Source: Syntrophales bacterium
Lineage (GTDB): Bacteria > Desulfobacterota > Syntrophia > Syntrophales > UBA2192
Assembly: GCA_035450185.1 (NCBI GenBank)
Contig: DAOTMG010000005.1
Location: 7,597-71,596 of the forward strand
Length of the DNA stretch: 64,000 nt
Direction of reading: 5' to 3'
The notes below the pieces were generated by a model. It was not told where the DNA came from. It was given only the letters and a program-made list of their open reading frames with translations, and did no database searches. Positions within the stretch are counted from its first letter, which is position 1. The number at the start of each line of letters is the position of its first letter. Positions 6,994 through 38,281 of this stretch are shown here, one piece after another. The position numbers were made by a program, and so were the translations under genes.

Positions 6994-7869
6994 TCACAAT
7001 CCCCGCATGAATTCCGGTCTCAAATAGTCCGGGCGCCGTTTCGCGATCACGGCATCGAGAACCTGAAGGAGGCTCTCCCGGTCGGCCGGCAGCCTCGCCC
7101 GGACGGGCAGGTAGTTCGAGGCGTGATTGGAGGTGAAGAAGCAGTCCGTGAAGTTCGAGGCCTCGACGATGGTGCGGAGTTCCCCCAGAAGGGCAAACAC
7201 ATCCGGCAGGACGAAGGTCCCGCTGCGCCAGGCCTCGTAAAGAGGTGTGCCGGCAATGAGCATGACCGTGAGGATGCCGGCGTATTCCGGGTCGATGTCC
7301 GTCAGGATCCGGGCGGTCTCCCTTGCGTGCTTCGCGCTCAGCTCGACTCCCCCGATGCCCAGGAGGGCCGTGACCGAAAGCGTGATGCCGGCCTCCTTCA
7401 CCCGCCGGCCGGCCTCGACCATCTGATCATAGGTGACCCCCTTCCGAACCCTCCGGAGAACCTCCTCGCTCCCGGTCTCCACGCCCAGGTAAACGATCTT
7501 GAGCCCTTCCTCCCTCAGGGCGGCAAGTTCTTCCCTGTTTTTTCGGAGGATGCTCTTCGCATTGGCGTACGTTCCGACTCGTTCCACCCCGCCGATGTTC
7601 TCACCGATGGACTTCAGGATCCCCAGAAGCCTCTTCTGGGGGATGATGAGGGCATCCCCGTCGCAGAGGAAGACCCGCTTCGCCGATCGCAGCCTCGTTC
7701 CGGCTTCCCGAAGATCCTCCTCGATCTCACCCTGCGAGCGGATCCTGAATCTCTTCTGCTTGTAGGCGGAGCAGAAGGTGCACCGGTTGTGGGAACAACC
7801 GACGGTCGCCTGCAGGAGCAGGCTCCGTGCCTCGCTGGGAGGACGGATGATCGTGCCTTCGTACCTCAT
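6994..7869 (-). CDS. Radical SAM domain protein (Elp3-like core, no SPASM or B12 domain)
   Basis: N-terminal cluster motif GCSHNRCTFCSAY (CX4CX2C) and a TIM-barrel-like core (VYLGVETGS). RBS AGGA lies 5 nt upstream of the start. Starts 6 nt after the preceding small gene. Confidence 0.8.
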   Translation of the reverse strand: MRYEGTIIRPPSEARSLLLQATVGCSHNRCTFCSAYKQKRFRIRSQGEIEEDLREAGTRLRSAKRVFLCDGDALIIPQKRLLGILKSIGENIGGVERVGTYANAKSILRKNREELAALREEGLKIVYLGVETGSEEVLRRVRKGVTYDQMVEAGRRVKEAGITLSVTALLGIGGVELSAKHARETARILTDIDPEYAGILTVMLIAGTPLYEAWRSGTFVLPDVFALLGELRTIVEASNFTDCFFTSNHASNYLPVRARLPADRESLLQVLDAVIAKRRPDYLRPEFMRGL

Positions 7870-7875
7870 GCCGTC

Positions 7876-8085
7876 CTAATCCAGGTTGCCGCTGTACGGG
7901 TTGATCCTGCCATCGTGAAAACACTTGCGGCAGAAGGCTTTCGGGTCCACGTGCCCGCAGCCGTAACCCCAGAGATCGATGGTCCGGCATCCCGAGCACA
8001 GCGGGATGGCGCATCCATCACAGAGAACAACCGAGTTTTTTGTCTTGCAGACTCCGCAGAGCTCCGTTCCGTCTGTCACGATCAT
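7876..8085 (-). CDS. Cysteine-rich 69-aa protein (four CxxC pairs plus one Cys; zinc-ribbon or Fe-S-like)
   Basis: Strong RBS AAAGGAG 9 nt upstream of the ATG at 8085. Pattern is CGVC-x8-CDGC-x4-CSGC-x9-C-x8-CRKC. Tightly coupled to the radical SAM gene. Confidence 0.65.
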   Translation of the reverse strand: MIVTDGTELCGVCKTKNSVVLCDGCAIPLCSGCRTIDLWGYGCGHVDPKAFCRKCFHDGRINPYSGNLD

Positions 8086-8195: not shown

Positions 8196-8211
8196 TGGCA
8201 GACATCTTGCA
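8196..8211 (+). promoter_or_regulatory. Sigma-54 (-24/-12) promoter candidate facing kamA
   Basis: TGGCAGACATCTTGCA matches TGGCAC-N5-TTGCA, with the GG and GC elements at exact consensus spacing. It lies in an AT-rich divergent intergenic region about 205 nt upstream of the kamA ATG. Confidence 0.6.
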
Positions 8212-8415: not shown

Positions 8416-9756
8416 ATGGAAGACAATGTCTGTCTAACCCAGGAGGCGGAGCCTCCCGGTAGACACGCCGGCCCCGCCGGTTCGGCTCTGGATGAGCTGA
8501 AGGAACAACACACCTCCCCTTCCGTGGCAATCACCACGACCAGGAAGAACAGATCCCTGTTTCTCTTTCCCACCCGCGGCATCAGCACCTGCAAACCCAG
8601 CGCACGGTCCAAGGCTTTTCAGAAACGCTTTTACCCCGGCATCTCGTCCGTCGAATGGAATGACTGGCAATGGCAGCTGAAGAACCGCATCACAGGCCTG
8701 GAAACGCTCTCGCGGATGATCTGGCTCTCCGATGACGAGACCAGCACCATCATCCGACGGGGAGGCAGCATCCCCCTGAGCATCACTCCCTATTACGCCA
8801 GTCTCCTGGACGCGATGGATCCCGAACAACCCGTCCGCAGGACCGTGATCCCCCGGAGCCTCGAATTCCATCACTCCTGGGAGGAATCCGACGACCCTCT
8901 CGGCGAAGAAAGCGACAGCCCCGTTCCGGGCCTGGTCCACCGATACCCGGACCGTGTCCTCTTCCTCGTGACGAATTTCTGCTCGACCTACTGCCGGTAC
9001 TGCACCCGCTCCCGCATCCTCGACCACGGCAACGGAATCCCGCCCGGCAAGGAGAGATGGGAGCAGGCCATCGATTACATCGCATCGACGCCCCAGGTCC
9101 GCGACGTCCTCCTGTCCGGCGGTGACCCCCTGACCATGAGCGACGAGAGCATCGACTGGCTCCTCCAGAAACTGCGGGCCATCCCCCATGTGGAGCTTTT
9201 GCGGATCGGGACCAAGGCGCCCGTCGTGCTCCCCCAGCGCATCACGGCGAAGCTGACTTCCGTTCTGAAGCGTTACCATCCTCTGTGGATGAGCATCCAC
9301 TTTACCCACCCCGAAGAGCTCACCCCCGAGGTGGGGCAGGCCTGTGCCCGGCTCGCCGACGCCGGCATCCCCCTGGGCAGCCAGACGGTTCTCCTCGCGG
9401 GCATCAACGACGACGTGGAGGTGATGACCCGGCTGGTCCACGGCTTGATCAAGATCCGGGTGAAGCCCTATTACCTTTACCAGTGCGATCCCATCTCGGG
9501 ATCCTCGCACTTCCGGACATCGATCGAAAAAGGACTCGAGATCATCCGCGGCCTCCGCGGGCACACGACGGGTTACGCCGTCCCGACCTACGTGATCGAC
9601 GCGCCGGGCGGGGGCGGGAAGATTCCCCTGCTGCCGGAGTACGTTGTCGGTCGGGACGATCATCACCTGCTCCTCCGGAACTACCAGGGGCAGCTATACC
9701 GCTACCCGGACGTGCGACAGTCGAACGATCCCGGACCGTTCTCCCCGTGTATCTGA
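8416..9756 (+). CDS. kamA: L-lysine 2,3-aminomutase (KamA/AblA-type radical SAM, PLP enzyme)
   Basis: RBS AAGGAGAG. Motifs WNDWQWQL, HRYPDRVLFLVTNFCSTYCRYCTRS (CX3CX2C), SGGDPL and DAPGGGGK. Collinear by eye with Bacillus KamA but lacks its long C-terminal tail. Confidence 0.9.
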   Translation: MEDNVCLTQEAEPPGRHAGPAGSALDELKEQHTSPSVAITTTRKNRSLFLFPTRGISTCKPSARSKAFQKRFYPGISSVEWNDWQWQLKNRITGLETLSRMIWLSDDETSTIIRRGGSIPLSITPYYASLLDAMDPEQPVRRTVIPRSLEFHHSWEESDDPLGEESDSPVPGLVHRYPDRVLFLVTNFCSTYCRYCTRSRILDHGNGIPPGKERWEQAIDYIASTPQVRDVLLSGGDPLTMSDESIDWLLQKLRAIPHVELLRIGTKAPVVLPQRITAKLTSVLKRYHPLWMSIHFTHPEELTPEVGQACARLADAGIPLGSQTVLLAGINDDVEVMTRLVHGLIKIRVKPYYLYQCDPISGSSHFRTSIEKGLEIIRGLRGHTTGYAVPTYVIDAPGGGGKIPLLPEYVVGRDDHHLLLRNYQGQLYRYPDVRQSNDPGPFSPCI

Positions 9757-9783
9757 GGATTCAGGACGCCGGGGTGCCGAGCA

Positions 9784-10899
9784 GTGCCGGAATCGACGTG
9801 CGTGAACCCTTATCCATCAGAGAGCGTCTCTTTGCACAACCCGGCCCCCCCCGCCCGAAGACCTCGTCGTGACTCGAGGAACAGGGGCAAGACGATTGTC
9901 GGTATCACCTACGATCTCCGGGAGGACTACCTCCGGGAGGGTTACAGTGAAGAGGAAACGGCGGAGTTCGATCAACCTTCCACGATCGACGCCATTGATC
10001 AGACCCTGCGGTCTCTCGGATTCCGGACGGACCGCATCGGCCATGTCCGGAACCTGACGCGGCGCCTCGCGCGTGGAGAGCGCTGGGACATCGTCTTCAA
10101 CATCGCCGAAGGCATGTACGGTCTCGGGAGAGAGGCGCAGGTCCCGGCCCTGCTGGACGCCTACGGCATCCCCTACACCTTCTCGGACGCGCTCGTCCTT
10201 GCCCTGACCCTCCACAAAGGGCTGACCAAGCACGTGCTGCGGGATCTCGGCATCCCGACGGCGGACTTCGCCGTCGTCACCCGTGACGCCGACGTCGAGC
10301 GTGTCCGCCTCCCCTTGCCGCTCTTCGTCAAGCCTGTCGCCGAAGGGACGGGGAAGGGCGTCACCGTGGCATCGAAGGTCCGCCACCGGCGCGAGCTGCG
10401 ACGGCTGTGCCGGGAGCTGATAAAGCGTTACAGCCAACCCGTCATCGTGGAGACCTTCCTCCCCGGCCGCGAGTTTACCGTGGGGATCATCGGAACGGGA
10501 AAGGATGCCAGGGCCGTCGCAGTGCTCGAAATCGCTCTCCGGGCCGAGGCGGAACGGGGGGTCTATTCGTACCTCAACAAGGAACACTGCGAAACCCTCG
10601 TGGATTACTTCCTGGCCCATGATGCCGAGGCCCGGCGGGCCGCGGACGTGGCCCTCGCCGCATGGCGTGCGCTGGGTTGCCGGGATGCCGGCCGGGTGGA
10701 TCTGCGATCGGACGGCAGGGGTGAACCGAACTTCATCGAGGTCAATCCCCTGGCGGGGCTCCATCCCACACACTCGGACCTGCCCATTCTGTGCAACCTG
10801 GCCGGTCTGAGCTATCGGAAGCTCATCCGCGCGATCATGGACTCGGCACTGAAGAGGATTCCCCGGACGCCGACGGGCGGTGCCGCCGGGAACATATGA
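9784..10899 (+). CDS. ATP-grasp ligase, D-Ala-D-Ala ligase-like family (paralogue 1)
   Basis: GTG start 27 nt after kamA. Ddl-like central and C-terminal ATP-grasp motifs (LFVKPVAEGTGKGV, EFTVGIIG, GRVDLRSD..NFIEVNPLAG). Confidence 0.8.
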   Translation: MPESTCVNPYPSESVSLHNPAPPARRPRRDSRNRGKTIVGITYDLREDYLREGYSEEETAEFDQPSTIDAIDQTLRSLGFRTDRIGHVRNLTRRLARGERWDIVFNIAEGMYGLGREAQVPALLDAYGIPYTFSDALVLALTLHKGLTKHVLRDLGIPTADFAVVTRDADVERVRLPLPLFVKPVAEGTGKGVTVASKVRHRRELRRLCRELIKRYSQPVIVETFLPGREFTVGIIGTGKDARAVAVLEIALRAEAERGVYSYLNKEHCETLVDYFLAHDAEARRAADVALAAWRALGCRDAGRVDLRSDGRGEPNFIEVNPLAGLHPTHSDLPILCNLAGLSYRKLIRAIMDSALKRIPRTPTGGAAGNI

Positions 10900-10945
10900 C
10901 TTTCCGGTCCTTTCTCCGGATGGACCGGCCGATGATCACCGGATT

Positions 10946-11932
10946 ATGAGAATCGCCGTTCTCCACAATGACGTTCCGGACACAGCCCCCCCGGACGAAA
11001 AAGACGCCCTTCTGCAGGCGGAGGCTGTCCGTTCCGCCCTGCTGACACTCGGTCACGAGACCGTCCTGATCCCCTTTCCGATGGATATCCGGGAGGTCGT
11101 CGAAAGATTCTCCCGGCAGAGGCCCGACGGGGTCTTCAACCTCGTCGAGTCCGTCGGCGGCCAGGGACGGTTCATCCACCTGGCACCGGCGGTGCTGGAC
11201 GCCCTATCGACACCCTATACGGGATCGCCGACATCAGCCGTTTTTCTGACTTCCCACAAACTCGAAACCAAAAAGCGTCTCCGATCGGCCGGTCTGCCCA
11301 CCCCTCCGTGGCACTCGACAGACGATGCTTCGGCCGACACCCCTGTTTCCGGCGTTCCCTTCATCATCAAATCGGTCTGGGAACACGCCTCCATCGGGCT
11401 GGGTGACGATTCCATCATCGTACCCGCGGACGCAGGGGAGTTGCAGGTTGAACTGGAAAAAAGGAAGGAACAGCTGGGCGGCGAGGCCTTTGCGGAACGC
11501 TATATCGACGGCCGCGAGTTCAATCTCTCCCTCCTCGAAAGAAAGGAGGGGGTTTCGGTCCTGCCGCCGGCGGAGATCCTGTTCAGGGATTTCCCGGCCG
11601 ACAAGCCCCGGATCGTCGGATACCGTGCGAAATGGGACGAGGGGGCGCACGAATACCACAACACCCCCCGCAGTTTCGACTTCCCCGCGGGGGACCGGGA
11701 GCTGCTCGAGAGGCTCAAGACCCTTTCGAGATCCTGCTGGGATCTCTTCGGACTCAGGGGGTATGCCCGTGTGGATTTCCGGGTGGATCGCAAAGGCGTT
11801 CCCTGGATTCTGGAAATCAACACCAATCCCTGCCTGACGCCGGACAGCGGCTTCGTGGCGGCCGCGGCGGAAAGCGGTCTTGATTATACCGATCTCATCG
11901 CCGAGATTGTTGCCGGGGCTTTTCGTCGGTGA
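10946..11932 (+). CDS. ATP-grasp ligase, D-Ala-D-Ala ligase-like family (paralogue 2)
   Basis: ATG at 10946 (MRIAVLHNDV) is preferred over the overlapping upstream start. ATP-grasp motifs present (FIIKSVWEHASIG, GREFNLSLL, ARVDFRVD..WILEINTNP). Confidence 0.8.
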   Translation: MRIAVLHNDVPDTAPPDEKDALLQAEAVRSALLTLGHETVLIPFPMDIREVVERFSRQRPDGVFNLVESVGGQGRFIHLAPAVLDALSTPYTGSPTSAVFLTSHKLETKKRLRSAGLPTPPWHSTDDASADTPVSGVPFIIKSVWEHASIGLGDDSIIVPADAGELQVELEKRKEQLGGEAFAERYIDGREFNLSLLERKEGVSVLPPAEILFRDFPADKPRIVGYRAKWDEGAHEYHNTPRSFDFPAGDRELLERLKTLSRSCWDLFGLRGYARVDFRVDRKGVPWILEINTNPCLTPDSGFVAAAAESGLDYTDLIAEIVAGAFRR

Positions 11933-12080
11933 AATGCCGGTTTCAAAAAAGGCGGTCGCTTCACATTCACGATCAGGAAACAGGGGGAGACTGCGTCGGG
12001 TGGGACGACGGTCGGGGTTGACGTCCCGAAAGGGTATTTCGAGGTCTTTCTCTTCGATGGCGCAGACGCCTGTGACACCC

Positions 12081-12272
12081 TCAGGGGCCGGTGTACTTCA
12101 GTTCGTTGCCGAGATCGTTTTTTTCAGTGATCACGCCATCGGGACTGTCGATCTCGAAATGATACGCCGTGATGAATCCGTCCGATCTCAATTTTTTGCC
12201 GATCGCCAGAAGAATACGCTGGGCATCCGTGGGGGTCGCCGCCAGCACATCCAGCTGCATTGTCGCTTTCAT
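12081..12272 (-). CDS. Hypothetical 63-aa protein
   Basis: ATG at 12272 with GGGGGAA 8 nt upstream and GC3-rich codon usage. No recognisable motif. Confidence 0.4.
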   Translation of the reverse strand: MKATMQLDVLAATPTDAQRILLAIGKKLRSDGFITAYHFEIDSPDGVITEKNDLGNELKYTGP

Positions 12273-12323
12273 GAAAAGGTTCCCCCGTAAATGATTCGCC
12301 GGGCCGACAACGGGCAAAGCGCA

Positions 12324-12355
12324 AAAGGGTTTCGGTCCGCGGACCGAAACCCTTT
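12324..12355. terminator. Bidirectional intrinsic terminator
   Basis: Perfect 15-bp inverted repeat AAAGGGTTTCGGTCC-GC-GGACCGAAACCCTTT with T-rich tracts on both strands. Immediately downstream of tRNA-Asp on the minus strand. Confidence 0.75.
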
Positions 12356-12364
12356 GTTATTTTC

Positions 12365-12675: not shown

Positions 12676-15093
12676 TCAGGCGTGGATCGGGACCCGTTTC
12701 GCCACCGGCTCCCGCTCCGGTCTGTCTTCCTGAGGCTCAGGGGCCGGTTTCTCCATGAAGGCCACCTTCAGCACCTCGTCTACATTTTCCACATACACGA
12801 TTTCAAGAGCTTTCAGCACGTTGCCGGGAATGTCCACCATGTCTTTTTCATTCTCCCGCGGGATAATGACGGTCTTGATGTTCCCCCGGTGGGCCGCCAG
12901 GAGTTTTTCCTTGACGCCGCCGATGGGCAGGACGCGACCCCTCAGGGTGATCTCGCCGGTCATGGCAAGGTCTCCCCGGACCTTGCGCTTGAGAAGCGCC
13001 GAGGCGATGGATGTGGCGATGGCGATCCCGGCCGAGGGTCCGTCCTTCTGAATGGCCCCTTCGGGCACATGAACATGGATGTCCCTTTCTTTGTATGAGC
13101 TCTCGTCAATGCCGAGCACGTCGGCTCTCGAGCGGACATAGGTGAGGGCCGCCTGCGCCGATTCCTGCATCACGTCGCCCAGCTTGCCCGTCAGGGTCAG
13201 TTTCCCCGACCCGGGCATCGTGGTGGCCTCCACCGTCAGGAGTTCCCCGCCCACCTCGGTCCAGGCCAGTCCGATCGTCAACCCCACGGAATCCTTCCCC
13301 TCGGTTTCGCCAAAACGGAATTTCGGAACCCCCAGATATTTTTCAACGGATTTCGACGAGATCTTGATCGTCCCCTTGTGACCGTTGGTGACGATCTCGC
13401 GTGCCACCTTCCGGCAGATGGAAGCGATCTCTCTCTCGAGGTTGCGGACACCCGCTTCCCGCGTGTAGCGCCGGATGACCTCCAGAATGGACCCGTCGGT
13501 GAAGAGGATGTCGTTGGACGTCAGCCCGTTGGCCTCCAGCTGTTTGGGAACGAGAAACTTCTTGGCGATGTTGAGCTTCTCGGGCTCCGTGTACCCGGCG
13601 ATCCGGATCACCTCCATCCGGTCCTGAAGGGCCGCCGGGATGGTCTGGAGGATGTTGGCTGTCGTGATGAACATCACGTCGGACAGGTCATAGTCGACCT
13701 CCAGGTAGTTGTCGTTGAAGGCCGTGTTCTGCTCGGGATCCAGAACCTCCAGGAGCGCCGCCGAGGGGTCCCCCCGGAAATCGGAGCTCAGCTTGTCGAT
13801 TTCGTCGAGGCAGAAGACGGGATTGCTCGTCCCGGCCTTCTTCAGAAGCTGGATGATCTTGCCGGGCAGGGCGCCGATGTAAGTTCGCCGGTGACCCCGG
13901 ATCTCCGCCTCGTCCCTCAATCCACCCAGGGACAAACGGACGAAACGCCGGTTGGTGGCCCGGGCAATGGACTTGGCGACGGAGGTCTTGCCGACACCGG
14001 GAGGTCCGACAAGGCAGAGGATCGACGCCTTGTTCTTCTTGACCAGCGACTGCACCGCCAGGTACTCGAGGATCCTCTCCTTGACCTTCTTCAGACCGTA
14101 GTGATCCTCTTCCAGGATCTGCTCCGACTCTTTCAGGGTGTGCTTGTTCTCCGTTTTCTCCGCCCAGGGCATGTCGAGCAGCCAGTCGATGTAATTCCTC
14201 ACGACCGTGGCTTCGGCCGACATGGGGGACATCATCTTGAGTTTCTTGATTTCGTGCCTGACTTTCTTGTGCGCCTCCTCGGAGAGCTTCTTCTGCTTGA
14301 GGCGCTTCTCGAGCTCCTCGATCTCGCTGCTCAGGTCGTCCTTGTCGCCGATCTCCTTCTGGATGGCCCTCATCTGCTCGTTGAGGTAATAATCCTTCTG
14401 GGTCTTCTCCATCTGCTTCTTGACCCTGCGCTTGATCCGTTCCTCCAGCTCGAGGATTTCCGTCTCCGAGAGGATCTGGGCGTAGATCTTCTCCAGTCGC
14501 TCGGCCACGTCGACGATCTCCAGGATGTTCTGCTTCTGGTCGAGCTTGACGTTGAGATGGGAGGCGACGACATCGGAGAGCTTGCCGGGCTGATCGATGC
14601 CGGCGATGGTGTCCAGCATTTCCGGCTGAATCTTCTTGCTGAGTTTCGCGTAGGCCTTGAAGGCGTCGACGACCAGGCGGATCAGGGCCTGCAGGTCCGA
14701 AAGGGACTTGCTGGAGGACTCCTCCACCTCCGATACGTTCACCAGAAAGTGGGTGTCATGCGCCAGATATTCGCGGATGACCCCGCGCTTCTTCCCCTCC
14801 ACCAGGGCCTTCACGGTCCCGTCGGGCAGGCGGAGGAGCTGGATGATCACCCCGATGGTCCCGATGCGGTAGATGTCGCCCTCGTCCGGGTCGTCCTTCT
14901 GGGCGCTTCTCTGCGCGACGAGAAATATCTCGTTTTCGTGTTTCATGGCCGACTCGAGGGCGCTGATGGACTTCTCTCGGCCCACAAAGAGGGGGACGAT
15001 CATGTAGGGGAAGACCACCACATCCCTCAGCGGCAGGAGCGGCACCTTGTATATCTTGTCCGTTTTCTTTCCGTCTTTCATAAAATCGAACAT
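12676..15093 (-). CDS. lon: ATP-dependent Lon protease
   Basis: 805 aa with LON N-domain, Walker [10 protein letters not shown] and the protease site KDGPSAGIA. Confidence 0.97.
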
Positions 15094-15117
15094 GAGTATC
15101 TTTCTTCTCCGTTCAGC

Positions 15118-16374
15118 TTACGCCGTTTCCGACTTGGACTCGAATAAGAGGATGGGTTTCCCCTTGGAGACGACCACATCTTCGTTGATCACACATTCCT
15201 TCACATCCGTCCGCGAGGGGATATCGTACATGATGTCCAGCATGGTGTTCTCCAGTATGGCCCGCAGACCCCGCGCGCCGGACTTTCGCTCGACGGCGAG
15301 CCGGGCGATGGCCCGGACGGCCCCGTCGGTCAGTTTCAGTTTGACGTTTTCCATTTCAAAGATCTTCTGGTACTGCTTGACGATCGAGTCCTTGGGTTCC
15401 ACCAGCACGCGCATGAGGCTCTCCTCATCGAGCTCGTCCAGCGTGCTGATGACGGGAAGACGGCCCACGAATTCCGGGATGAGTCCGTATTTCAGGAGAT
15501 CTTCCGGCTGAACCTCCTTCAGGATCTCGCCGATCCTTTTTTCCTTCTTGCTCTTGATGTCGGCTCCAAACCCCATGAGACTGGAGCCGATCCTTTTCTG
15601 GATGATGTCCTCGAGGCCGACAAAGGCGCCGCCGCAGATAAACAGGATGTTGGTCGTGTCGACCTGGATGAACTCCTGCTGCGGGTGCTTTCGCCCGCCC
15701 TTCGGCGGGATGTTGGCGAGGGTCCCCTCGATGATCTTCAGAAGGGCCTGCTGAACGCCCTCCCCCGACACATCTCTCGTTATCGACGGGCTGCCTGATT
15801 TTCTTGAGATCTTGTCGATCTCGTCAATGTAAACGATGCCCTTGGACGCCTTTTCCACGTCATAGTCGGCGTTCTGCAGCAGACTGAGGATGATATTTTC
15901 CACGTCCTCTCCGACGTAACCGGCTTCCGTCAGGGAGGTCGCATCGGCGATCGCGAAAGGCACATTCAGGATTTTTGCCAGCGTCCTGGCGAGGAGCGTT
16001 TTTCCCGATCCCGTCGGGCCGATCAGGAGAATATTACTCTTCTGGAGCTCGACGCCGCCCAGGTCGATGTCCGTGAAAAGACGCTTGTAATGGTTGTAGA
16101 CGGCGACGGACAGAACCTTCTTCGTCCTCTCCTGAGCGATGACGTACTGGGCCAGGAACTTCTTGATGTCCCTCGGTTCGGGGATTCTCTTCTTGCCCTC
16201 CTCGATGCCCGCAATCTCTGTCTCTTCCTGGATGATGCAACGGCACAGTTCGATGCACTCATCGCAGATATACGCCGACGGGCCGGCAACGAGCTTTTTC
16301 ACCTCATTCTGCGTCTTGCCGCAGAATGAGCAGAAAAGGATCCCCCCTTCGCCGTCCTTGTTCTTCTTGGCCAT
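15118..16374 (-). CDS. clpX: ATP-dependent Clp protease ATP-binding subunit ClpX
   Basis: N-terminal zinc finger CSFCGK..CDEC, Walker A GPTGSGKT, and classical clpP-clpX-lon order. Confidence 0.97.
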
Positions 16375-16386
16375 GACTGCTCCCTT

Positions 16387-16983
16387 CTATTTCTTGACCA
16401 TTTGCCGTTTGGAAATGACCTCGTCGATGATGCCGTAGGACCTCGCCTGTTCTCCGCTCATATAATAATCACGTTCCGTGTCTTTTTCAATCTTCTCGAT
16501 CGACTGTTTTGTATGCAACGCCAGGATATGATTCAGTTCCTGACGGAGCCGCAAAATTTCTTTCGCCTGGATCTCCACATCCGTCGCCTGTCCCTCGAAC
16601 CCGCCGAGAGGCTGGTGGATCAAGATCCTCGAATGTGGCAGGGCATATCTCTTGCCGGCCTCTCCCGCCGCAAGGATAAGCGCTCCCATGCTCGCGGCCT
16701 GGCCCATGCAAACGGTGCAAACGGCCGGTTTGATGTACTGCATGGTGTCATAGATGGCGAGCCCCGCGCTTACGATCCCCCCGGGGGAATTGATATAAAA
16801 ATAGATGTCCTTGTCGGGGTCCTCCGATTCGAGGTACAGCATCTGGGCAATGATGAGATTCGCCACATCATCGTTGATCGGTACACCCAGGAAAATGATA
16901 CGGTCCTTGAGCAGCCTCGAGTAAATATCGAAGGCTCTTTCACCCCGTCCATCCTGTTCTATGACGATCGGTATCAGCGGCAT
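16387..16983 (-). CDS. clpP: ATP-dependent Clp protease proteolytic subunit
   Basis: 198 aa with the catalytic-Ser context GQAASMGA and the His context ILIHQP. Confidence 0.97.
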
Positions 16984-16989
16984 GTCCCC

Positions 16990-18297
16990 TCAAGCTTCCT
17001 TTTTCATGATAATATTAGCCCTGCTCTCGATAAAATCAAGGGTTTTTTCTTCCAATAATTTCAACTTGAAAGACTCCAACAAATTTTGTTGTTCGTACGA
17101 TTGTCGGATGGATTCATAGTTTTGTCTGTATCTCTGTCCAATTTCCTTTAACTTTTCTTCAACCTCTGCGTCATCTACCTGAATAGACTCTTTTTCGGCT
17201 ATTTTATGCAGCAGGAGGGTCGATTTGACGATTCGAACGGCATCCTCCTTGAACCGATCATGCAAATTCACCGCCATGCTTGCTGCCTGCTCGGGGTCCA
17301 TGCCCCCATAGACCATCCTCTTCTGGGCATCGACCATCATGTTCAGGATCTGTCGCTCCACATAGGCGGAAGGGACTTCAAAAAGATTGTTCTCCAGGAG
17401 TTTGTCCACGAGGCTTTTCCTCAACCCCGAACGGGCTTCCGACTCCTTCTGCTCCTGAGTCGACTTGCGAATGTCCTCTCTCAGGGCCGCCAGCGAGTCG
17501 TACTGATCAAAATTTTTGATGAAATCCTCATTCAGTTCCGGAAGAACCCTCACCTTGATGTCCTTGAGCAAGACCCGGAAGGTTGCCTCGCTGCCGGCCA
17601 GTTCCTTCGTGGGATAGTCCGACGGGAAGGGAATCGTAAATTCCCTGGAGTCTCCTTTCTTCATGCCGATCAGATGCTCCTCGAAACCGGGCATCAGCTT
17701 CCCGGCTCCGACCGTCAAACCATAGTTGTCTTCCGTCAATTCCTTCCGGAGTTCCCCGCCGATCCTCCCCTCGAAATCGACAAGAACATAATCCCCGCTG
17801 ATCACGCCCCTTTCCTCTTCCAGATCCTTCACCGAGCTGTACATGGACCTGAGATCCTGAAGCCTCAAATCCACGTCCTCGTCGGTTACGGACACGGCTC
17901 TTTTCTCGAGCGTGAGTTCCGTGTAGCCCCGGGGGTCAATGATCGGTTCGATTTCCACGGTGGCTTCGAAGCTGAAGCTCTTGTTCTCCTCGATCCCGTG
18001 CTGATCGATCTCGGGGTCCGCAACGGCGGTGATGCCGTTCTCCCGCAGCGCCTCCACGTAGGTATCATTCACCAGTTTTGTGATGGCCTCCCCTTCGGCC
18101 TGGTCTTTGAAGTAGGTTTCGAGAATCCTCCTCGGGGTTTTGCCCGGTCTGAACCCCTTGACCCTCGCTTTCCTGCCGACCGATTCATAGGCCCTGTCGA
18201 GCGCTTTTTTTACTTCCTCCCAGGGGATCTCAAAGGACAGTTTCTTCCTGACAGAACTGATCTCTTCAATTCTCACTTCAGCGGTTTTCACGACCAC
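16990..18297 (-). CDS. tig: Trigger factor
   Basis: About 433 aa with the GFRPGK ribosome-binding motif and a central FKBP domain. The start may be the GTG at 18291, which has a GAGGG RBS. Confidence 0.93.
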   Translation of the reverse strand: MVVKTAEVRIEEISSVRKKLSFEIPWEEVKKALDRAYESVGRKARVKGFRPGKTPRRILETYFKDQAEGEAITKLVNDTYVEALRENGITAVADPEIDQHGIEENKSFSFEATVEIEPIIDPRGYTELTLEKRAVSVTDEDVDLRLQDLRSMYSSVKDLEEERGVISGDYVLVDFEGRIGGELRKELTEDNYGLTVGAGKLMPGFEEHLIGMKKGDSREFTIPFPSDYPTKELAGSEATFRVLLKDIKVRVLPELNEDFIKNFDQYDSLAALREDIRKSTQEQKESEARSGLRKSLVDKLLENNLFEVPSAYVERQILNMMVDAQKRMVYGGMDPEQAASMAVNLHDRFKEDAVRIVKSTLLLHKIAEKESIQVDDAEVEEKLKEIGQRYRQNYESIRQSYEQQNLLESFKLKLLEEKTLDFIESRANIIMKKEA

Positions 18298-18781: not shown

Positions 18782-19240
18782 TCAGGTCAGGTAGTCACCC
18801 CGGTTGAACTTGATCGACTCCACGGAGACCGTGACGAGAATCCGGTTGATCAGATCCCGTGCGGCGTCGCTTTCCGGGAGTGATTCCATGAGGGGAAGAA
18901 GTCGGTCTTTTTCGGTTTCCATCCCGACGACGAGCTCGTGAATATCCCTGAGGGAGTATCGCGGGTCGGCCAGCTTCGACGAGTAGTCATCGAGGACGGC
19001 GAGTAGTTTCTCGGCACGGCCGATGGTTTCCATCCGGCTGACCGCGCCGGGGTGCAGGATTCCCGAGACGGCGGGAAAGATCGTGTTATTCAAGGCCTTT
19101 GCGGGTACATCGGCGCCGGTTTCGCCAACGGCCTTCCTCAATAGCGTCTCAAAAGCGCTCTCTGACGACGACCCGGAATCTTTCCTCTTTTCCGCGGCGA
19201 TTTCAGCTGTGACGATGGAACCCGTCGGTGATACTTTCAT
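18782..19240 (-). CDS. Hypothetical protein (152 aa)
   Basis: Good RBS GGAGG 9 nt upstream and coding-like codon usage. No family could be assigned with confidence. Confidence 0.55.
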   Translation of the reverse strand: MKVSPTGSIVTAEIAAEKRKDSGSSSESAFETLLRKAVGETGADVPAKALNNTIFPAVSGILHPGAVSRMETIGRAEKLLAVLDDYSSKLADPRYSLRDIHELVVGMETEKDRLLPLMESLPESDAARDLINRILVTVSVESIKFNRGDYLT

Positions 19241-19301
19241 CGCTCTTTCCTCCCTGTCCCGGGGTCTCTGACCATACTATCGGACGAAGGGCCTTCGCGG
19301 T

Positions 19302-19478
19302 TTAGTCGTCCTGACCGGTAGTGCTCCCCTCGGGGCCCGTTGCTGCGATCGGTTTTTCCGGCTCCTTCTTGTATTTAATGCAATCTCTGCACCAGATTTC
19401 GTATCCGCATGCACCCCGGCAAGTATCGAAATCATCAGGGATATCGGGTTTTTGCTGCGTCTTTTTTTCTTCGTCCAT
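19302..19478 (-). CDS. Possible small ORF (58 aa, four Cys), below the ORF-track cutoff
   Basis: Minus-strand ATG at 19478 to TAA at 19302. Translation is MDEEKKTQQKPDIPDDFDTCRGACGYEIWCRDCIKYKKEPEKPIAATGPEGSTTGQDD. The RBS is weak. Confidence 0.3.
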   Translation of the reverse strand: MDEEKKTQQKPDIPDDFDTCRGACGYEIWCRDCIKYKKEPEKPIAATGPEGSTTGQDD

Positions 19479-19567
19479 CGGTCAGAGACCCCGTTCCGGG
19501 GTCCGCAGGTCTTCTCTTCAGTGTGATCCTGTTTCCCGTCGGCGGCGAGACCCTGAAGGCCCTTCGC

Positions 19568-22771
<3,204 letters not shown>

Positions 22772-34943: not shown

Positions 34944-35252
34944 GGCCCATTCCGTTCTGCGGCATGAGAGGAGAGAGGCCCTTTCGTCGGCCGCTCCGGG
35001 CACCCGGAGCCGGTGGGGGATTATAGTGAAAGGGTTTACGCCGTGTCAAACACTGAAAATGGCGCGATCCGCCGCGACAGGCCGGGACCGAAACCGTCCC
35101 GACGGACCCGGCTGAGTCACGGGTCCGGTCAAAACCCGCTGCGATCTTCGCCTCCCCAGGGTTCATGCCGGAATTGACAGCCTCCCCGTTTGGTGCTAAA
35201 GAAGCTCGACACTCTCATTTATTCGGGTACTTTCATCCCAGAGCTCCCGTTT

Positions 35253-36683
35253 ATGTTCAGAAATTTGTTCCTGAATCTGTCGCTGAACAAGAAGCTCGTT
35301 TTCATGATGCTCGGCCTGAGTTTCCTGCTCCTTTCCCTCCTCTTCATCATCTATTTGCAGTCCGAGCGGGTCCTGGAGAAACAGCTGGAAACGCAGATCG
35401 TCGAGCTCACCCAGGCCATTCAGGTCGGCGTCGAGGAGGTCACCGGCACCGGCGGGACCGACGAGATGCGGCTGAGACAGTATCTCAAATCCCTCAAGTC
35501 CAGGGGGATCAAGGAGATTTCCATCATCAGCAACAAGGAAGAAATCATCGCAAGCACCAATCCCAAAAGCGTCGGCACCCCCGTCGGCCCCAAGAAGAAG
35601 GAATTGATCATCAAGGCCGAACTCGGTGAAAGGGCCGTCGATGAGGAGGGCAAGACCTACAACGTCATCATCCCCGTCATCGCCGGGGAGGCTCATTACG
35701 GCTATGTCCATCTCCAGATCAACGCGGACAATTTTTCCGAGCAGCTCAAGCTGAACACGTTGAAGCGTATCGCAGCCACCCTTCTCGTCTTCTCTCTGGG
35801 TATCGCCATTTCCATTTTCCTGGCCCTGAGATACACGGAACCCATACACAACGTCGTCGAGGCGGCAAAGAAAGTCGCTGCCGGTGATCTCAACCAGAGC
35901 CTGCCGATGGACCGGAAAGACGAGATCGGGGAACTCACCGAAAGCTTCAATTACATGGTGCAGAAGCTCAAGGAGGAGAAAAAGCTCGAGGAGCGCCTCC
36001 GTGAAGCCGAGCATCTCTCCGCCGTGGGACAGCTCGCCCGGGGCATCGCCCATGAAATCCGCAACCCGCTGAACTACATCAGTCTTTCCATCGATCATCT
36101 CAAGGAAAAGTACCGCCCGGCCGATGAGGCCCGGGAGAATAAATTCGACAGCCTGATTTCGTCCATGAAACAGGAGGTGCACCGTCTCGACAAGCTGGTC
36201 GGCGACTTCCTGGACTACGGCAAACCGCTCCGCCTGAATCTGCAGCCCGTCGATACGAAAAAGCTTCTCTCCCACATCGTGGAGATCATCAAGGCCAAGG
36301 CCGACACCGAGCACGTGGCGATTATTGAGAGTTACGACTTCCTGCCGGAACTGATGCTCGACTACGACCTGATGAAGACCTGCCTGTTCAACATCGTATC
36401 CAATGCCTTCCAGGCCATGCCGGAGGGCGGCACCATCACCTTCAGGACGGAACGGAGCGACGGCAAGTTCAACCTGCACATTCTCGACACGGGTGCCGGA
36501 GTTCCCAGGGAAAACCTCGAAAGAATCTTTGAACCGTTCTTCACCACGAAGAGCGGCGGGCTCGGGCTGGGCCTTGCGATCACCCGGCGGGTGATCGAAG
36601 AGCACGGCGGGAAAATCGACTTTCTCAGTTCCGAGGGCAGGGGCAGCGAGGTGTCGATCACCCTGCCCCTGGCGAGCCTCTGA
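35253..36683 (+). CDS. Sensor histidine kinase (2 TM, HAMP, HisKA, HATPase)
   Basis: H-box HEIRNPLN, N-box NAFQAM, G-boxes DTGAGV and GGLGLGLA. The ATG at 35253 is preferred over the upstream TTG. Confidence 0.88.
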   Translation: MFRNLFLNLSLNKKLVFMMLGLSFLLLSLLFIIYLQSERVLEKQLETQIVELTQAIQVGVEEVTGTGGTDEMRLRQYLKSLKSRGIKEISIISNKEEIIASTNPKSVGTPVGPKKKELIIKAELGERAVDEEGKTYNVIIPVIAGEAHYGYVHLQINADNFSEQLKLNTLKRIAATLLVFSLGIAISIFLALRYTEPIHNVVEAAKKVAAGDLNQSLPMDRKDEIGELTESFNYMVQKLKEEKKLEERLREAEHLSAVGQLARGIAHEIRNPLNYISLSIDHLKEKYRPADEARENKFDSLISSMKQEVHRLDKLVGDFLDYGKPLRLNLQPVDTKKLLSHIVEIIKAKADTEHVAIIESYDFLPELMLDYDLMKTCLFNIVSNAFQAMPEGGTITFRTERSDGKFNLHILDTGAGVPRENLERIFEPFFTTKSGGLGLGLAITRRVIEEHGGKIDFLSSEGRGSEVSITLPLASL

Positions 36684-36721: not shown

Positions 36722-38281
36722 ATGGCCGTGATCCTCGTCGTCGATGACGAACCCCTCCAGCGGGACATCCTGAAAACCATTCTGACGGACGCCGGTTACG
36801 AAACCCTCACCGCGGCGTCCGGCGAGGAAGCCCTCAGGCTGACCCGGACCTACAGCCCCGATGTCGTCCTGACCGACCTAAGGATGAAGGGGATGGACGG
36901 CATCGAACTCCTGGAGCGACTGATGGCCCGGGGGGAGTCGCCGACGGTACTCATCATGACGGCCTTCGGCACCATCGACTCGGCCGTGGAGGCCATGAAG
37001 AAGGGGGCCTTCGATTACATGACGAAGCCCCTCGATAAGGACGTGGTCATCATGACCGTCCGGCGGGCCCTGGAACGGTCGGAACTCCTGCGGAAAAACC
37101 TGGAACTCCAGCAGGCCCTGATGGACAAATTCAAGATCGAGGGCATCGTCGGCAAGTCCAAATCGGTCCAGGACGTCATCCACATCATCAAGAAGGTGTC
37201 GGACAGCCCCGCCACGGTCCTCATCCTCGGCGAGAGCGGAACGGGGAAGGAGCTCATTGCCCGCGCGATCCATTTCAACAGCCGGCGGGCCCCCAAATCC
37301 TTCACCGCCATCAACTGTGCCGCCATACCGGAGACCCTCCTCGAAAGCGAACTCTTCGGCTACGAGCCGGGCGCCTTCACCGGCGCCGTCGCCCGCAAGA
37401 TCGGTCTTTTCGAGGCGACCAACGGCGGCACCGTCCTTCTCGACGAGGTGGGAGACCTCCCTGCCATGACCCAGTCCAAGATTCTCCGGGTCCTCCAGGA
37501 AAGGGAAATCCGCAGACTGGGAGGCCGGGACTCCATCAAGATCGACGTCCGCATCATCGCCGCGACCAACAAGGACCTCGAACGGGAGATGAAGGAAAAC
37601 AAGTTCCGGGAAGACCTTTTTTACCGCCTGAAGGTCGTCACGATCGAGCTGCCGCCCCTGCGGGAACGGCGGGAGGATATTCCCGACCTCATTCAGTACT
37701 TCCTGCAGAAATACAACCAAGAATTCGACAAGAGAATCCGGAGGGTCGATGAGCCGGCCCTGAAGGCCCTGACGGACTTCCACTGGCCCGGCAACATCCG
37801 GCAGCTCCAGTCGGTGATCGAAAAGGCCGTTCTTTTGTGTGATTCCGACACGATCTCGCTCCGGGATATTCGGGACGAACTGACGTCGGGGTCCCCGTCG
37901 AAAGACATCCTCGATTTCGATTTGCCCGACGAGGGCATTTCCCTCGACGATTTTGAAAAGGCCGTTCTGAAAAAGGCCATGCAAAAAACCGATCACGTTG
38001 CCGCCCGTGCGGCCAAATTGCTCGGCCTCACCTACAAGACCTTCTGGTACCGCTGGGAGAAGTTCGACCTGGACGCGACAGCGGATCGCATCCCCGGCGA
38101 GGATCTCTTCCGCTTTGAAATCCCCGGCGGCGGCGTCAACTACGAAGACCTCGAAAAGGCGCTGATCCGCAAGGCCATGGTGAAAGCGCATTACGTCGTT
38201 TCAAAGGCCTCTCGCCTTCTCGGCATCAGTGAAAAGGCTTTTCGTTCGAGGTGGGAGAAATACGGGCCGAACCAGGGCTGA
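36722..38281 (+). CDS. Sigma-54-dependent response regulator (REC-AAA+), with two tandem Fis-type HTH modules
   Basis: REC domain (VVDDEP..D), AAA+ domain with GESGTGKE and the sigma-54 contact loop GAFTGA. The C-terminal HTH region is duplicated (37904..38068 and 38099..38266). Confidence 0.92.
   Translation: MAVILVVDDEPLQRDILKTILTDAGYETLTAASGEEALRLTRTYSPDVVLTDLRMKGMDGIELLERLMARGESPTVLIMTAFGTIDSAVEAMKKGAFDYMTKPLDKDVVIMTVRRALERSELLRKNLELQQALMDKFKIEGIVGKSKSVQDVIHIIKKVSDSPATVLILGESGTGKELIARAIHFNSRRAPKSFTAINCAAIPETLLESELFGYEPGAFTGAVARKIGLFEATNGGTVLLDEVGDLPAMTQSKILRVLQEREIRRLGGRDSIKIDVRIIAATNKDLEREMKENKFREDLFYRLKVVTIELPPLRERREDIPDLIQYFLQKYNQEFDKRIRRVDEPALKALTDFHWPGNIRQLQSVIEKAVLLCDSDTISLRDIRDELTSGSPSKDILDFDLPDEGISLDDFEKAVLKKAMQKTDHVAARAAKLLGLTYKTFWYRWEKFDLDATADRIPGEDLFRFEIPGGGVNYEDLEKALIRKAMVKAHYVVSKASRLLGISEKAFRSRWEKYGPNQG

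Follow-up and report, generated by a model that had tools for sequence, protein, structure and literature searches.

The window analysed here, a stretch of Syntrophales DNA 64,000 nucleotides in length, contains a gene for a lysine 2,3-aminomutase of the KamA family followed by genes for two ATP-grasp ligases (AG1 and AG2), an arrangement which raises the question of what becomes of the beta-lysine that the first enzyme would generate. Of the fates of beta-lysine in bacteria, the best known is beta-lysyl-lysine on EF-P (PMC12856214), and the AblA/AblB pathway to N-epsilon-acetyl-beta-lysine is known from methanogens and has been predicted in Pelobacter carbinolicus (PMC3543383).

Organisation and putative regulation of the locus

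The three open reading frames (Table 1), the intergenic gaps of 27 nt (KamA-AG1) and 46 nt (AG1-AG2), and the KamA motifs CSTYCRYCTRS (residues 189-199) and DAPGGGGK (residues 395-402) were found exactly as an initial sequence-only reading of the window had described them, and the three genes read as one co-transcribed operon. The open frame of AG2 starts earlier than its assigned ATG, at 10880. Downstream, the terminator-like hairpin abuts a tRNA-Asp gene on the opposite strand, and no relic of a GNAT acetyltransferase gene was found in the gap between AG2 and the hairpin (11933-12323).

Table 1. Features of the KamA-AG1-AG2 locus, in window coordinates.
Feature	Position	Strand	Length or start	Description
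Sigma-54-type promoter-like element TGGCAGACATCTTGCA (GG-N10-GC)	8196..8211	+		205 nt 5' of KamA start
KamA gene	8416-9756	+	446 aa	KamA-family radical SAM/PLP lysine 2,3-aminomutase, C-terminally truncated type
AG1 gene	9784-10899	+	GTG start, 371 aa as ORF	Ddl-fold ATP-grasp ligase
AG2 gene	10946-11932	+	ATG start, 328 aa	Second, divergent Ddl-fold ATP-grasp ligase
Intrinsic-terminator-like hairpin	12324..12355	+		Strong, 14-bp stem; operon end

When both strands of the window were scanned, TGGCAGACATCTTGCA was the sole strict GG-N10-GC match, and it is retained at the same offset in two close relatives (L006 and L007). The strict-pattern element is limited to this clade; loci of the Desulfobacula type carry a looser element, TGGTATGATGTTTGCT, some 110 nt upstream of KamA, and in other genomes a gene for a sigma-54 enhancer-binding protein lies directly upstream of KamA. 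On the motif match, the operon is probably sigma-54-dependent, a form of control common in nitrogen metabolism.

Searches by tblastn, together with Pfam-annotated gene maps of matching contigs, detected no GNAT, EF-P, EpmA or KamDE gene in window positions 1-61739. The osmotic theme which the sequence-only reading had drawn from the presence of mscL and a Ktr/Trk system did not survive inspection of the map: the mscL and Trk genes lie at ~39.3-42.2 kb, 27-30 kb from the cassette with housekeeping genes between, and are unlinked to it.

Properties predicted for KamA, AG1 and AG2

Family scans matched KamA to Radical_SAM and LAM_C, and the only model that it passed was TIGR00238, that of the KamA family as a whole. 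The best NCBIfam model, TIGR03820 (AblA), returned 498.4 bits, below its cutoff of 525.4, and the EpmB model 256 against a cutoff of 369. A weak match to TIGR03910 (PylB) occurred solely on an unrelated radical SAM gene upstream. Alignment with the clostridial enzyme 2A5H (E=4e-140) covered residues 8-367 of that 416-residue protein, and KamA ends 14 residues further on; the prior description of it as full length was therefore inaccurate, the C-terminal zinc/tetramerisation domain of the clostridial aminomutase being missing and the zinc ligand Cys268 of 2A5H being replaced by Asp333. At the other terminus, ~65 extra residues are poorly conserved. Retained are C189/C193/C196, R198, D358, D395 and K402, the last four being equivalent to R134, D293, D330 and K337 of 2A5H, and by these four the pocket is assigned to the lysine type. 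Because KamA falls short of the AblA equivalog cutoff and lacks the C-terminal domain, it may nevertheless use a related basic substrate or yield a different stereochemistry.

Both ligases match Pfam Dala_Dala_lig_C, as expected from the earlier description of two D-Ala-D-Ala-ligase-like genes after kamA, and comparison with Ddl by profile and structure bore out the likeness in fold while placing both enzymes below every curated Ddl cutoff (AG1 157.6 and AG2 123.7, against 243). The two are 29-30% identical to one another and 22-29% identical to Ddl, and in both sequence and fold they come closest to the D-Ala-D-Ala, D-Ala-D-Lac and D-Ala-D-Ser ligases. The start of AG1 is uncertain, the conserved protein commencing at around residue 38 (GITYDL) and residues 1-34 having pLDDT values below 50 in an AF2 model with an overall pLDDT of 82. 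The AG1 model shows all three domains of the Ddl fold and a flexible lid, which supports a small-molecule substrate; the top 50 Foldseek matches were all Ddl enzymes, with TM scores of ~0.8 to Ddl structures. Among more distant ATP-grasp enzymes, the AG1 profile also matched cyanophycin synthase (CphA), and searches of NCBIfam and PDB sequences gave no match to PylC for either ligase.

Residues with ATP, Mg or catalytic roles (K97, K144, E180, E187, K215, R255, D257, E270 and N272) are invariant in AG1 and AG2, and the transition-state Arg/Lys of Ddl and VanA are kept; both ligases are thus predicted to be catalytically competent, presumably through the acyl-phosphate mechanism of Ddl. By way of contrast, the triad that binds the first D-Ala (E15/S150/Y216) and L282 are replaced in both, and an Arg at the position of M259 is a new invariant residue in each. 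AG1 has gained an invariant acidic residue, D332, and AG2 has a distinct pocket (D17, A148, W230, R279, C296, D300 and G302), in which W230, C296 and D300 likewise count as newly invariant; the new invariant acidic residues D332, D17 and D300 would suit cationic substrates. Since the ATP/Mg residues are kept but the substrate pockets rebuilt, assignment of either protein as a D-Ala-D-Ala ligase was rejected. Unlike those of Ddl, moreover, their genes are linked to KamA and not to mur/dcw genes.

Distribution of the cassette and its partner genes

A survey of neighbourhoods, as advocated in the sequence-only reading, was conducted from both sides. Among 80 species-level genomes fetched with KamA, AG1 followed KamA in 71 of the 72 loci that could be tested, and AG2 was present in 65 of 69; starting from AG2, 53 of 57 loci had an adjoining AG1, and 28 of 34 from metagenomes had KamA upstream. 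The same gene order was recorded in Desulfobacterota, Alphaproteobacteria, Planctomycetota, Bacteroidota, Fibrobacterota and Myxococcota, with conservation across phyla of 55-69% for AG1 and 56-70% for KamA, and with an extreme abundance in metagenomes, at 8000 or more clusters each. Carriers include isolates such as Desulforhabdus amnigena and Rhodovulum marinum DSM 18063. Single-polypeptide fusions include KamA::AG1, with AG1 joined to KamA in 39 protein clusters, AG1::AG2 (P0241 and others), and a reversed AG1-like::KamA that represents an independent architecture. With order kept across phyla and such fusions, the linkage is far above chance. Loci with AG1-AG2-GNAT but no KamA within ~5 kb (L142, L151 and L167), with AG2-GNAT alone (L114 and L118), or with KamA-AG2 but no AG1 (L143 and L148) indicate that the modules can separate. 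The distribution is patchy and resembles that left by horizontal transfer, and the hosts include freshwater as well as marine organisms.

The proposal that no known beta-lysine partner accompanies the operon stood for window positions 1-61739, yet in relatives a GNAT gene directly follows AG2 in 43 of 57 loci from genomes and 52 of 60 from metagenomes, and the window locus is a GNAT-less variant of the cassette. This GNAT (~160 aa) does not match the AblB model, has RimI as its best NCBIfam match, below cutoff, and is represented at orthologue level by structure 2R7H. In 14 of the 57 loci there is also a deacetylase of the acetylpolyamine-amidohydrolase (APAH) type (E=2e-72 to that group). A sister architecture, found on three independent contigs, combines the AG1-like::KamA fusion with a second, adenylate-forming ligase and a cyanophycinase-like S51 peptidase (45 bits, against a cyanophycinase cutoff of 126.6), a peptidase absent from the AG1-AG2-GNAT cassette. 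In eight Desulfobacteraceae loci, and in that family only, an mpl/murC-like gene follows the GNAT; no carrier, membrane or transferase gene was conserved with the cassette in the neighbourhoods of relatives.

Proposed pathway and alternative products

Searches of the literature and of family databases found no published description of, or curated family for, the KamA-AG1-AG2 cassette. Taken with that result, the two-sided synteny, the fusions, the lysine-type KamA pocket and the intact non-Ddl ligases strongly back the view, already advanced in the sequence-only reading as a novel fate for beta-lysine, that the three genes act together to send it into an amide made by ATP-grasp enzymes. As to the nature of that amide, we consider it reasonably probable (about 0.6) that the operon uses L-lysine to make a small beta-lysine-containing peptide or polyamine-like amide, soluble and cationic, by two ATP-dependent ligations. 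KamA would convert free L-lysine to beta-lysine, a step with good support from homology; AG1 would then use ATP to form an acyl-phosphate and a first amide bond involving beta-lysine, and AG2 would add a second to give a tripeptide-like or short oligomeric product. AG1 is the ligase with the tighter coupling to KamA, and the strength of linkage and the fusion patterns are the grounds on which direct action on beta-lysine is provisionally assigned to it and the end of the molecule provisionally chosen. In most other genomes the GNAT, with the deacetylase in some, would reversibly acetylate an aminoalkyl group left free in the product. The most plausible such group is the epsilon-amine of beta-lysine, in which case the two ligases would act on the carboxylate and beta-amino ends of that residue; for the window locus, the product would remain without acetylation unless the genome has a GNAT gene at another site.

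Several established systems offer partial parallels. As with AblA/AblB, a KamA-family aminomutase is co-transcribed with enzymes that would derivatise beta-lysine, including a GNAT in most relatives, but two ligases intervene, the GNAT is not of the AblB type and is missing from the window locus, and KamA has neither the C-terminal domain nor an AblA-level score; the methanogen-type route, like a role in D-Ala-D-Ala supply, was set aside. In pyrrolysine synthesis, the radical SAM mutase PylB isomerises L-lysine and the ATP-grasp enzyme PylC links the isomer to another lysine by way of the latter's epsilon-amine, a logic of isomerisation followed by amide formation by a neighbouring ligase that the cassette shares, although its mutase is of the PLP-dependent KamA type, its ligases are two and unmatched by PylC, and it has neither PylD nor pylTS. 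ATP-grasp ligases, in some cases together with a GNAT, likewise make small cytoplasmic (N-acetyl)peptides: bacterial NAGGN arises through Ngg/AsnO (a GNAT and an ATP-grasp enzyme), mammalian NAAG is an N-acetylated dipeptide, and carnosine synthase is an ATP-grasp enzyme able to activate a beta-amino acid. These systems nevertheless involve other ATP-grasp subfamilies and substrates, and none has beta-lysine or linkage to a radical SAM aminomutase.

Were the ligases instead to make longer chains, whether oligomer or polymer, from beta-lysine or a dipeptide containing it, one making the building block and the other elongating it, the product could resemble cyanophycin as a nitrogen reserve or poly-beta-lysine as a polycation, its charge or toxicity set by (de)acetylation. 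Two paralogous tandem ligases, fused in some genomes, the S51 peptidase of the sister architecture, the remote cyanophycin synthase match, the acetylpolyamine type of the deacetylase and the putative sigma-54 control all accord with this, as does the neutralisation of the beta-lysine chain of streptothricin by GNAT acetylation of its beta-lysine amines. The reading is nonetheless doubtful, given that AG1 and AG2 share the closed Ddl architecture with a lid that is typical of dipeptide ligases and not the multi-domain one of CphA, that the peptidase scores poorly and is confined to the sister loci, and that primer or granule-associated genes are not conserved. GNATs are also the classic self-resistance enzymes for beta-lysine antibiotics, and a secreted negamycin- or streptothricin-like compound, with GNAT and deacetylase serving self-resistance or pro-drug handling, would fit the patchy spread across phyla. 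In the negamycin cluster of Kitasatospora purpeofusca, kamA supplies the beta-lysine building block and ATP-grasp genes are present, a precedent for this combination that also favours the two-ligation pathway proposed above (bioRxiv 10.1101/2025.05.27.656397); that actinomycete secondary-metabolite cluster, however, carries a hydroxylase, an N-methylase and the heme N-N-forming NegJ, whereas no conserved exporter, tailoring enzyme or cluster-type regulator adjoins the present cassette, the window keeps the biosynthetic genes without the putative resistance GNAT, and the unusual conservation across phyla and extreme metagenome abundance better fit core physiology, so that an antibiotic appears improbable.

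The sequence-only reading had left open a small solute or oligomer as against a protein or envelope acceptor, and of these the small molecule is favoured by the APAH-type deacetylase, the sister S51 peptidase and the lack of a conserved carrier or membrane partner, protein and envelope acceptors appearing less likely. Attachment to protein, whether to an EF-P-like target independently of EpmA or by RimK/LysX-like C-terminal addition, with the GNAT and an HDAC-type enzyme acting on protein lysines, would be in keeping with the leading bacterial fate of beta-lysine, with the modification of proteins by some ATP-grasp enzymes such as RimK, and with the sub-cutoff RimI match. EpmB and EpmA similarly pair a KamA-family aminomutase with formation of a beta-lysyl amide; EpmB is, however, shorter, its model is far from matched by KamA, and EpmA is a LysRS paralogue and not an ATP-grasp enzyme. 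With neither efp nor another candidate target gene conserved nearby, lid-bearing ligases of the Ddl small-molecule type, a deacetylase that groups apart from protein deacetylases, a spread and putative sigma-54 control that would be odd for a modifier of a core translation factor, and no ATP-grasp route to EF-P modification in a 2026 review, this is less probable still. Least probable of all is the supply of a beta-lysine dipeptide to peptidoglycan or another envelope polymer, after the manner of Ddl, VanA or D-aspartate ligase: the kinship with D-Ala ligases and the mpl/murC-like neighbour point towards it, but the neighbour is restricted to one family, the residues that bind D-Ala have been replaced, the cassette has no conserved partner of a MurF-like, Fem-like or membrane transferase kind, and the GNAT, deacetylase and S51 peptidase suggest a soluble metabolite.

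If the product is indeed a small soluble peptide or amide, its physiological role is the weakest step of the scheme and our suggestion is a guess, namely that it may serve inside the cell as a nitrogen-rich solute or a cation resembling polyamines, with a part in the physiology of stress or of nitrogen. The cassette itself is widespread in bacteria, and the fate proposed here for its beta-lysine would be one not described before.

Organisation and conservation of the cassette

The three open reading frames placed by the sequence-only reading, comprising a lysine 2,3-aminomutase-family gene (KamA) followed by two Ddl-like ATP-grasp ligase genes (AG1 and AG2), were confirmed with respect to coordinates, to the 27-nt KamA-AG1 and 46-nt AG1-AG2 gaps, and to both KamA motifs, CSTYCRYCTRS and DAPGGGGK, which occupy residues 189-199 and 395-402, respectively. 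The only strict sigma-54 match in the window is located in an AT-rich intergenic stretch of 300 nt that precedes KamA, and a scan for sigma-70 promoters found none; transcription of the operon would, on this motif evidence, be sigma-54-dependent. Across the window, Rfam models matched tRNAs only, and the 205-nt leader contained no lysine riboswitch.

Coordinates of the cassette, its surroundings and related architectures
Feature	Locus	Coordinates	Strand	Remarks
KamA	window	8416-9756	+	446 aa; Pfam Radical_SAM and LAM_C
AG1	window	9784-10899	+	GTG start, 371 aa; Pfam Dala_Dala_lig_C
AG2	window	10946-11932	+	ATG start, 328 aa; Pfam Dala_Dala_lig_C
Sigma-54-type element TGGCAGACATCTTGCA	window	8196-8211	+	GG-N10-GC, near-consensus; motif match
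Terminator hairpin	window	12324-12355		14-bp stem; closes operon; tRNA-Asp and tRNA-Val follow on opposite strand
Post-AG2 slot	window	11933-12364		polymorphic
Segment within slot	window	12081-12349		~270 nt
ORF within segment	window	12081-12272	-	63 aa, conserved; no family match
Radical SAM protein	window	6994-7869	-	291 aa; weak B12-rSAM/HpnJ-like matches only
Zinc-ribbon-like ORF	window	7876-8085	-	69 aa, Cys-rich
Homologue of 291-aa protein	L004 (Desulforhabdus amnigena)	19076-19954		52% identity
lon-clpX-clpP-tig	window	12676-18297		adjoin cassette
HAMP histidine kinase	window	~35190-36683
Sigma-54 regulator	window	36722-38281
mscL, TrkH/TrkA	window	roughly 39.3-42.2 kb
Pyruvoyl-dependent arginine decarboxylase and agmatinase-family gene	window	~44945-46404	-	putrescine synthesis
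YkgJ-type CxxCxxCC protein	L033	6934-7452		between KamA and AG1
250-aa domain/HDAC/GNAT fusion	L023	13298-15562
250-aa domain/HDAC/GNAT fusion	L088	10054-12287
Sister system	L172	1024-5196		L172, L173 and L175 are unrelated contigs
Sister system	L173	4912-9193
Sister system	L175	3048-7199

The only sigma-54 activator gene of the window lies 27 kb from the operon beside a HAMP histidine kinase gene, and was rejected as the cognate activator because its 33% identity to cassette-linked enhancer-binding proteins is of a generic level. The osmotic theme previously read into the presence of mscL and TrkH/TrkA was likewise abandoned, since these genes are 27-30 kb away. Two other ORFs, coding for a radical SAM protein and a zinc-ribbon-like protein, diverge from KamA, and in D. 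amnigena a homologue of the former is found ~9 kb away from the cassette. In 12 Desulfobacterota loci a lon gene is no more than ~5 kb distant from the cassette, in differing orientations, a proximity that probably reflects ancestral synteny rather than function. The genes for putrescine synthesis would be relevant only if the ligases were to use a diamine co-substrate. The remainder of the window consists of housekeeping genes.

A genome scan anchored on KamA yielded 80 species-level loci (56-93% identity) from Desulfobacterota, Alphaproteobacteria (including Rhodovulum marinum DSM 18063), Planctomycetota, Verrucomicrobiota, Bacteroidota, Fibrobacterota and Myxococcota. Counting only those loci with enough flank, AG1 was directly downstream of KamA in 71 of 72, followed by AG2 in 65 of 69 and then by a ~160-aa acetyltransferase (GNAT) in 43 of 57; an HDAC-family domain was present at 14 of 57, and a sigma-54 enhancer-binding protein was coded for directly upstream at 8 of 64. 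Both ATP-grasp genes are therefore syntenic with KamA in related genomes, as the sequence-only reading had required, and the order found in the window, KamA, AG1 (recognised by an AEFD ... SDLP signature) and AG2 (W230/C296) on one strand, is that of at least 65 species-level loci. A metagenome scan anchored on AG2 placed AG1 adjacent in 53/57 cases, KamA upstream in 28/34 and GNAT downstream in 52/60. Partial sets also occur: AG1-AG2-GNAT with no KamA within ~5 kb (L142, L151, L167), AG2-GNAT alone (L114, L118), KamA-AG2 without AG1 (L143, L148) and KamA-AG1 without AG2 (L012, L024, L078). At L118 the AG2-GNAT pair adjoins a putative RimK-related ligase, as judged from sequence motifs.

The strongest evidence of linkage is provided by gene fusions. 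An exhaustive HMMER search with AG1 over 1.8 billion representatives found AG1::AG2 (e.g., P0241), KamA::AG1 (P0250) and CxxCxxCC(YkgJ)::AG1 (P0247) proteins, and the best 120 matches to a P0250 query included 39 fusion clusters with lengths of 640 aa or more. Syntrophobacteraceae bacterium DRH4 carries a sigma-54 activator, an 819-aa KamA::AG1 fusion, then AG2 and GNAT, and the order in Desulfocarbo indianensis is activator-KamA-AG1-AG2-HDAC-GNAT. Comparative genomics thus shows the three genes, usually together with GNAT, to be one functional unit (the cassette) in which KamA is coupled most tightly to AG1. Highly conserved and present in at least six phyla, mostly in anaerobic bacteria, the cassette is also very abundant: KamA and AG1 each account for 8000 or more protein clusters at 90% identity.

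The aminomutase and its two ligases

A PDB search matched KamA to the lysine 2,3-aminomutase of Clostridium subterminale (2A5H) with E = 4e-140. The radical SAM motif C189-x3-C193-x2-C196 (CSTYCRYC) aligns to C125/C129/C132 of that enzyme, and K402, R198, D358 and D395 correspond to its K337, R134, D293 and D330, all of them conserved; in 2A5H, K337 binds PLP, Arg134 the carboxylate, and Asp293 with Asp330 the epsilon-ammonium group. In glutamate 2,3-aminomutase both lysine-binding Asp residues are replaced; such replacements are absent from KamA, and free L-lysine is therefore its likely substrate.

Assignment within the family was less straightforward than the earlier designation of a full-length enzyme of KamA/AblA rather than EpmB type. 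KamA does fall far short of the EpmB model (TIGR03821, 256.1 bits against a cutoff of 369.3), but its best NCBIfam model, AblA (TIGR03820), gave only 498.4 bits against an equivalog cutoff of 525.4. The models for glutamate and arginine 2,3-aminomutases (TIGR04368/TIGR04468) were also failed, at 435 against 650 and 402 against 600 bits, and the only model passed was the broad KamA family TIGR00238 (379.9 against 199.2). Nor can the protein be described as full length: its alignment spans residues 8-367 of the 416 in 2A5H and it stops 14 residues further on, the LAM_C match covers positions 1-57 of 127, Asp333 takes the place of the zinc ligand Cys268, and the C-terminal inter-subunit zinc domain (Cys268 plus a CxCxxC near residue 375) is missing. 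The ~65 additional N-terminal residues are conserved within Desulfobacterota only, and homologues from other phyla align from residue ~62. At several loci (L033, L045, L132, L134, L150) a YkgJ-type CxxCxxCC protein is interposed between KamA and AG1, and might speculatively serve as a dedicated redox partner of the radical SAM enzyme.

AG1 and AG2, distant relatives of Ddl that are 29-30% identical to each other, gave PDB matches with E-values of 1e-26 and 5e-21, respectively. When E. coli DdlB, the sequence of which was checked to be that of 1IOV, was aligned with orthologues of AG1 (73 sequences) and AG2 (68 sequences), the equivalents of K97, K144, E180, E187, K215, R255, D257, E270 and N272 proved invariant throughout; because all residues concerned with ATP, Mg and the transition state are thereby retained, both proteins are predicted to be catalytically active.

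The substrate pockets depart from that of Ddl. AG1 has A60/E61 for E15, T189 for S150, and Glu (E267 in the window) or Lys for Y216, and while S281 is retained as S331, L282 is replaced by an invariant D332. In AG2 the Ddl triad Glu15-Ser150-Tyr216 gives way to D17, A148 and W230, and W230, C296 and D300 are invariant, with Ala or Gly at the S281 position (S301 in the window, Ala in most members) and G302 for L282. In both ligases the M259 position of DdlB is an invariant Arg. A housekeeping Ddl identity was rejected because the residues binding D-Ala are replaced and the NCBIfam Ddl scores (AG1 157.6, AG2 123.7) lie below the cutoff of 243.

An AlphaFold model of AG1 (pLDDT 82; N-terminal 34 residues and lid loop 259-265 disordered) was sought to be placed beside a structural neighbour other than Ddl, but the best 50 Foldseek matches in the PDB were all Ddl, with TM values of ~0.8 on target. 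A profile search of the PDB with AG1 similarly ranked Ddl/Van first, the L-amino-acid ligase BL00235, glutathione synthase and cyanophycin synthase far lower, and did not find PylC. Taken with the replaced pocket residues, these matches identify AG1, in part from its predicted structure, and AG2, from its alignment, as putative small-molecule ligases that carry a lid, belong to the Ddl lineage and have new substrate pockets of a more acidic character. A separate 980-aa protein, P0338, carries a C-terminal AG1-like ATP-grasp domain (41% identity) and no KamA part; its N-terminal ~600 residues resemble leucine-rich repeats by eye, and it is possibly eukaryotic.

Acetyltransferase, deacetylase and a sister architecture

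The sequence-only reading had emphasised that no GNAT accompanies KamA. This holds for the window, all 64 kb of which lack a homologue, and a search of the ~390-nt gap between AG2 and the tRNAs found no relic of one, but it does not extend to the related loci, about three quarters of which carry a GNAT that is not of AblB type: sub-threshold RimI-like matches alone were obtained, and none to AblB (TIGR03827) at E<0.01. The best PDB match is at orthologue level to 2R7H (E=1e-44), deposited as a 'putative D-alanine N-acetyltransferase', a name that seems to derive from neighbouring mis-annotated 'D-Ala-D-Ala ligases'. GNAT is missing as well from L007 and L092, close relatives with a KamA identity of 89-91%, which share the ~270-nt segment of the window, with its minus-strand ORF, whereas L006 and L093 (90% identity) have GNAT in that slot instead. 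This polymorphism suggests that the acetyltransferase after AG2 was gained or lost recently.

At ~15 loci the GNAT forms the C-terminus of a ~750-aa protein that also comprises an uncharacterised 250-aa domain and an HDAC domain; acetyltransferase and deacetylase within one polypeptide is an unusual combination, and in D. indianensis the parts are separate genes. The best PDB matches of the HDAC domain were acetylpolyamine amidohydrolases (APAHs; 6PHR, 2e-72; 3Q9B, 4.5e-64), with protein deacetylases lower. APAHs strip acetyl groups from terminal aminoalkyl chains, a specificity that would fit the epsilon-amine of a beta-lysine residue.

A sister system was recognised on three contigs. This independent architecture comprises an adenylating enzyme that resembles PaaK/F390 synthetase, an S51 peptidase that resembles cyanophycinase and scored 45 bits against the cyanophycinase cutoff of 126.6, and an AG1-like::KamA fusion that shares the AEYD ... 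SDLP signature and has 37% and 51% identity to the window proteins; AG2 and GNAT are absent from these contigs. An aminomutase and an AG1-type ligase are thus common to cassette and sister system, and each adds another enzyme that forms amides and one for modifying or breaking down a small amide.

Candidate products and wider meaning

Homology shows a lysine-type active site in KamA and two Ddl-fold ligases that are catalytically intact and are not Ddl. From this basis it is proposed that KamA would make beta-lysine, that AG1 would form a first amide involving it and AG2 a second, and that the epsilon-amine would be left free, to be reversibly acetylated wherever GNAT and APAH-type enzymes occur. 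The operon, probably sigma-54-dependent, would then yield an amide that is soluble, cationic and either like a di- or tripeptide or a short oligomer. This reading as a whole is given a probability of roughly 0.6, its least secure element being the role of the product as a solute, polyamine surrogate or nitrogen reserve.

Four rival readings were weighed. A true polymer, cyanophycin- or poly-beta-lysine-like and made by the ATP-grasp enzymes independently of the ribosome, would act as a nitrogen store akin to cyanophycin or as an endogenous polycation, its charge tuned by GNAT and APAH and its degradation undertaken, in the sister system, by the S51 peptidase; it is considered unlikely. When all ORFs of the 80 loci were clustered, no transporter, carrier protein, peptidase, membrane transferase, efp or target gene proved universal beside the cassette, and the NUDIX, pyridoxal kinase, Mpl, YitT and Lon neighbours were lineage-specific. 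A secreted antibiotic is judged improbable, and beta-lysylation of a protein marginally more so. With regard to the latter, the earlier statement that epmA and EF-P are missing was borne out by the annotated window maps, which contain no EF-P or class II tRNA-synthetase-like gene, and a 2026 review of EF-P includes no ATP-grasp route among its modifications. A cell-wall precursor is the most improbable of all.

Comparison with known systems is instructive. AblA/AblB is the closest by components, but no AblB-type GNAT (TIGR03827) lies beside the KamA of the window; PylB/PylC, in which a radical SAM lysine isomerase is followed by an ATP-grasp ligase, is the closest by logic; and the negamycin cluster likewise pairs kamA with ATP-grasp genes. 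In gene content and family membership the cassette matches none of them. To our knowledge, the fates of beta-lysine comprise fermentation, N-epsilon-acetyl-beta-lysine as an osmolyte, modification of EF-P and a few actinomycete antibiotics. NCBIfam (June 2026) holds no specific model for AG1, AG2 or GNAT, source annotations read only 'KamA family radical SAM protein', 'D-alanine--D-alanine ligase' or 'ATP-grasp domain-containing protein', and the cassette is described nowhere in the full-text literature searched, which did not extend to the amidoligase survey of Iyer and Aravind (2009). It is therefore rated a variant, albeit a very widespread one, of pathways that build small peptides without the ribosome from an amino acid supplied by a mutase.

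Once identified, the product would add a new beta-lysine metabolite, possibly one that serves sulfate reducers and syntrophs as a compatible solute, polyamine surrogate or nitrogen reserve, or, should the polymer reading prove true, a polymer that thousands of anaerobic bacteria from many phyla would share. Its identification would also correct thousands of Ddl mis-annotations and yield two new ligases accepting a beta-amino acid, of use in biocatalysis.
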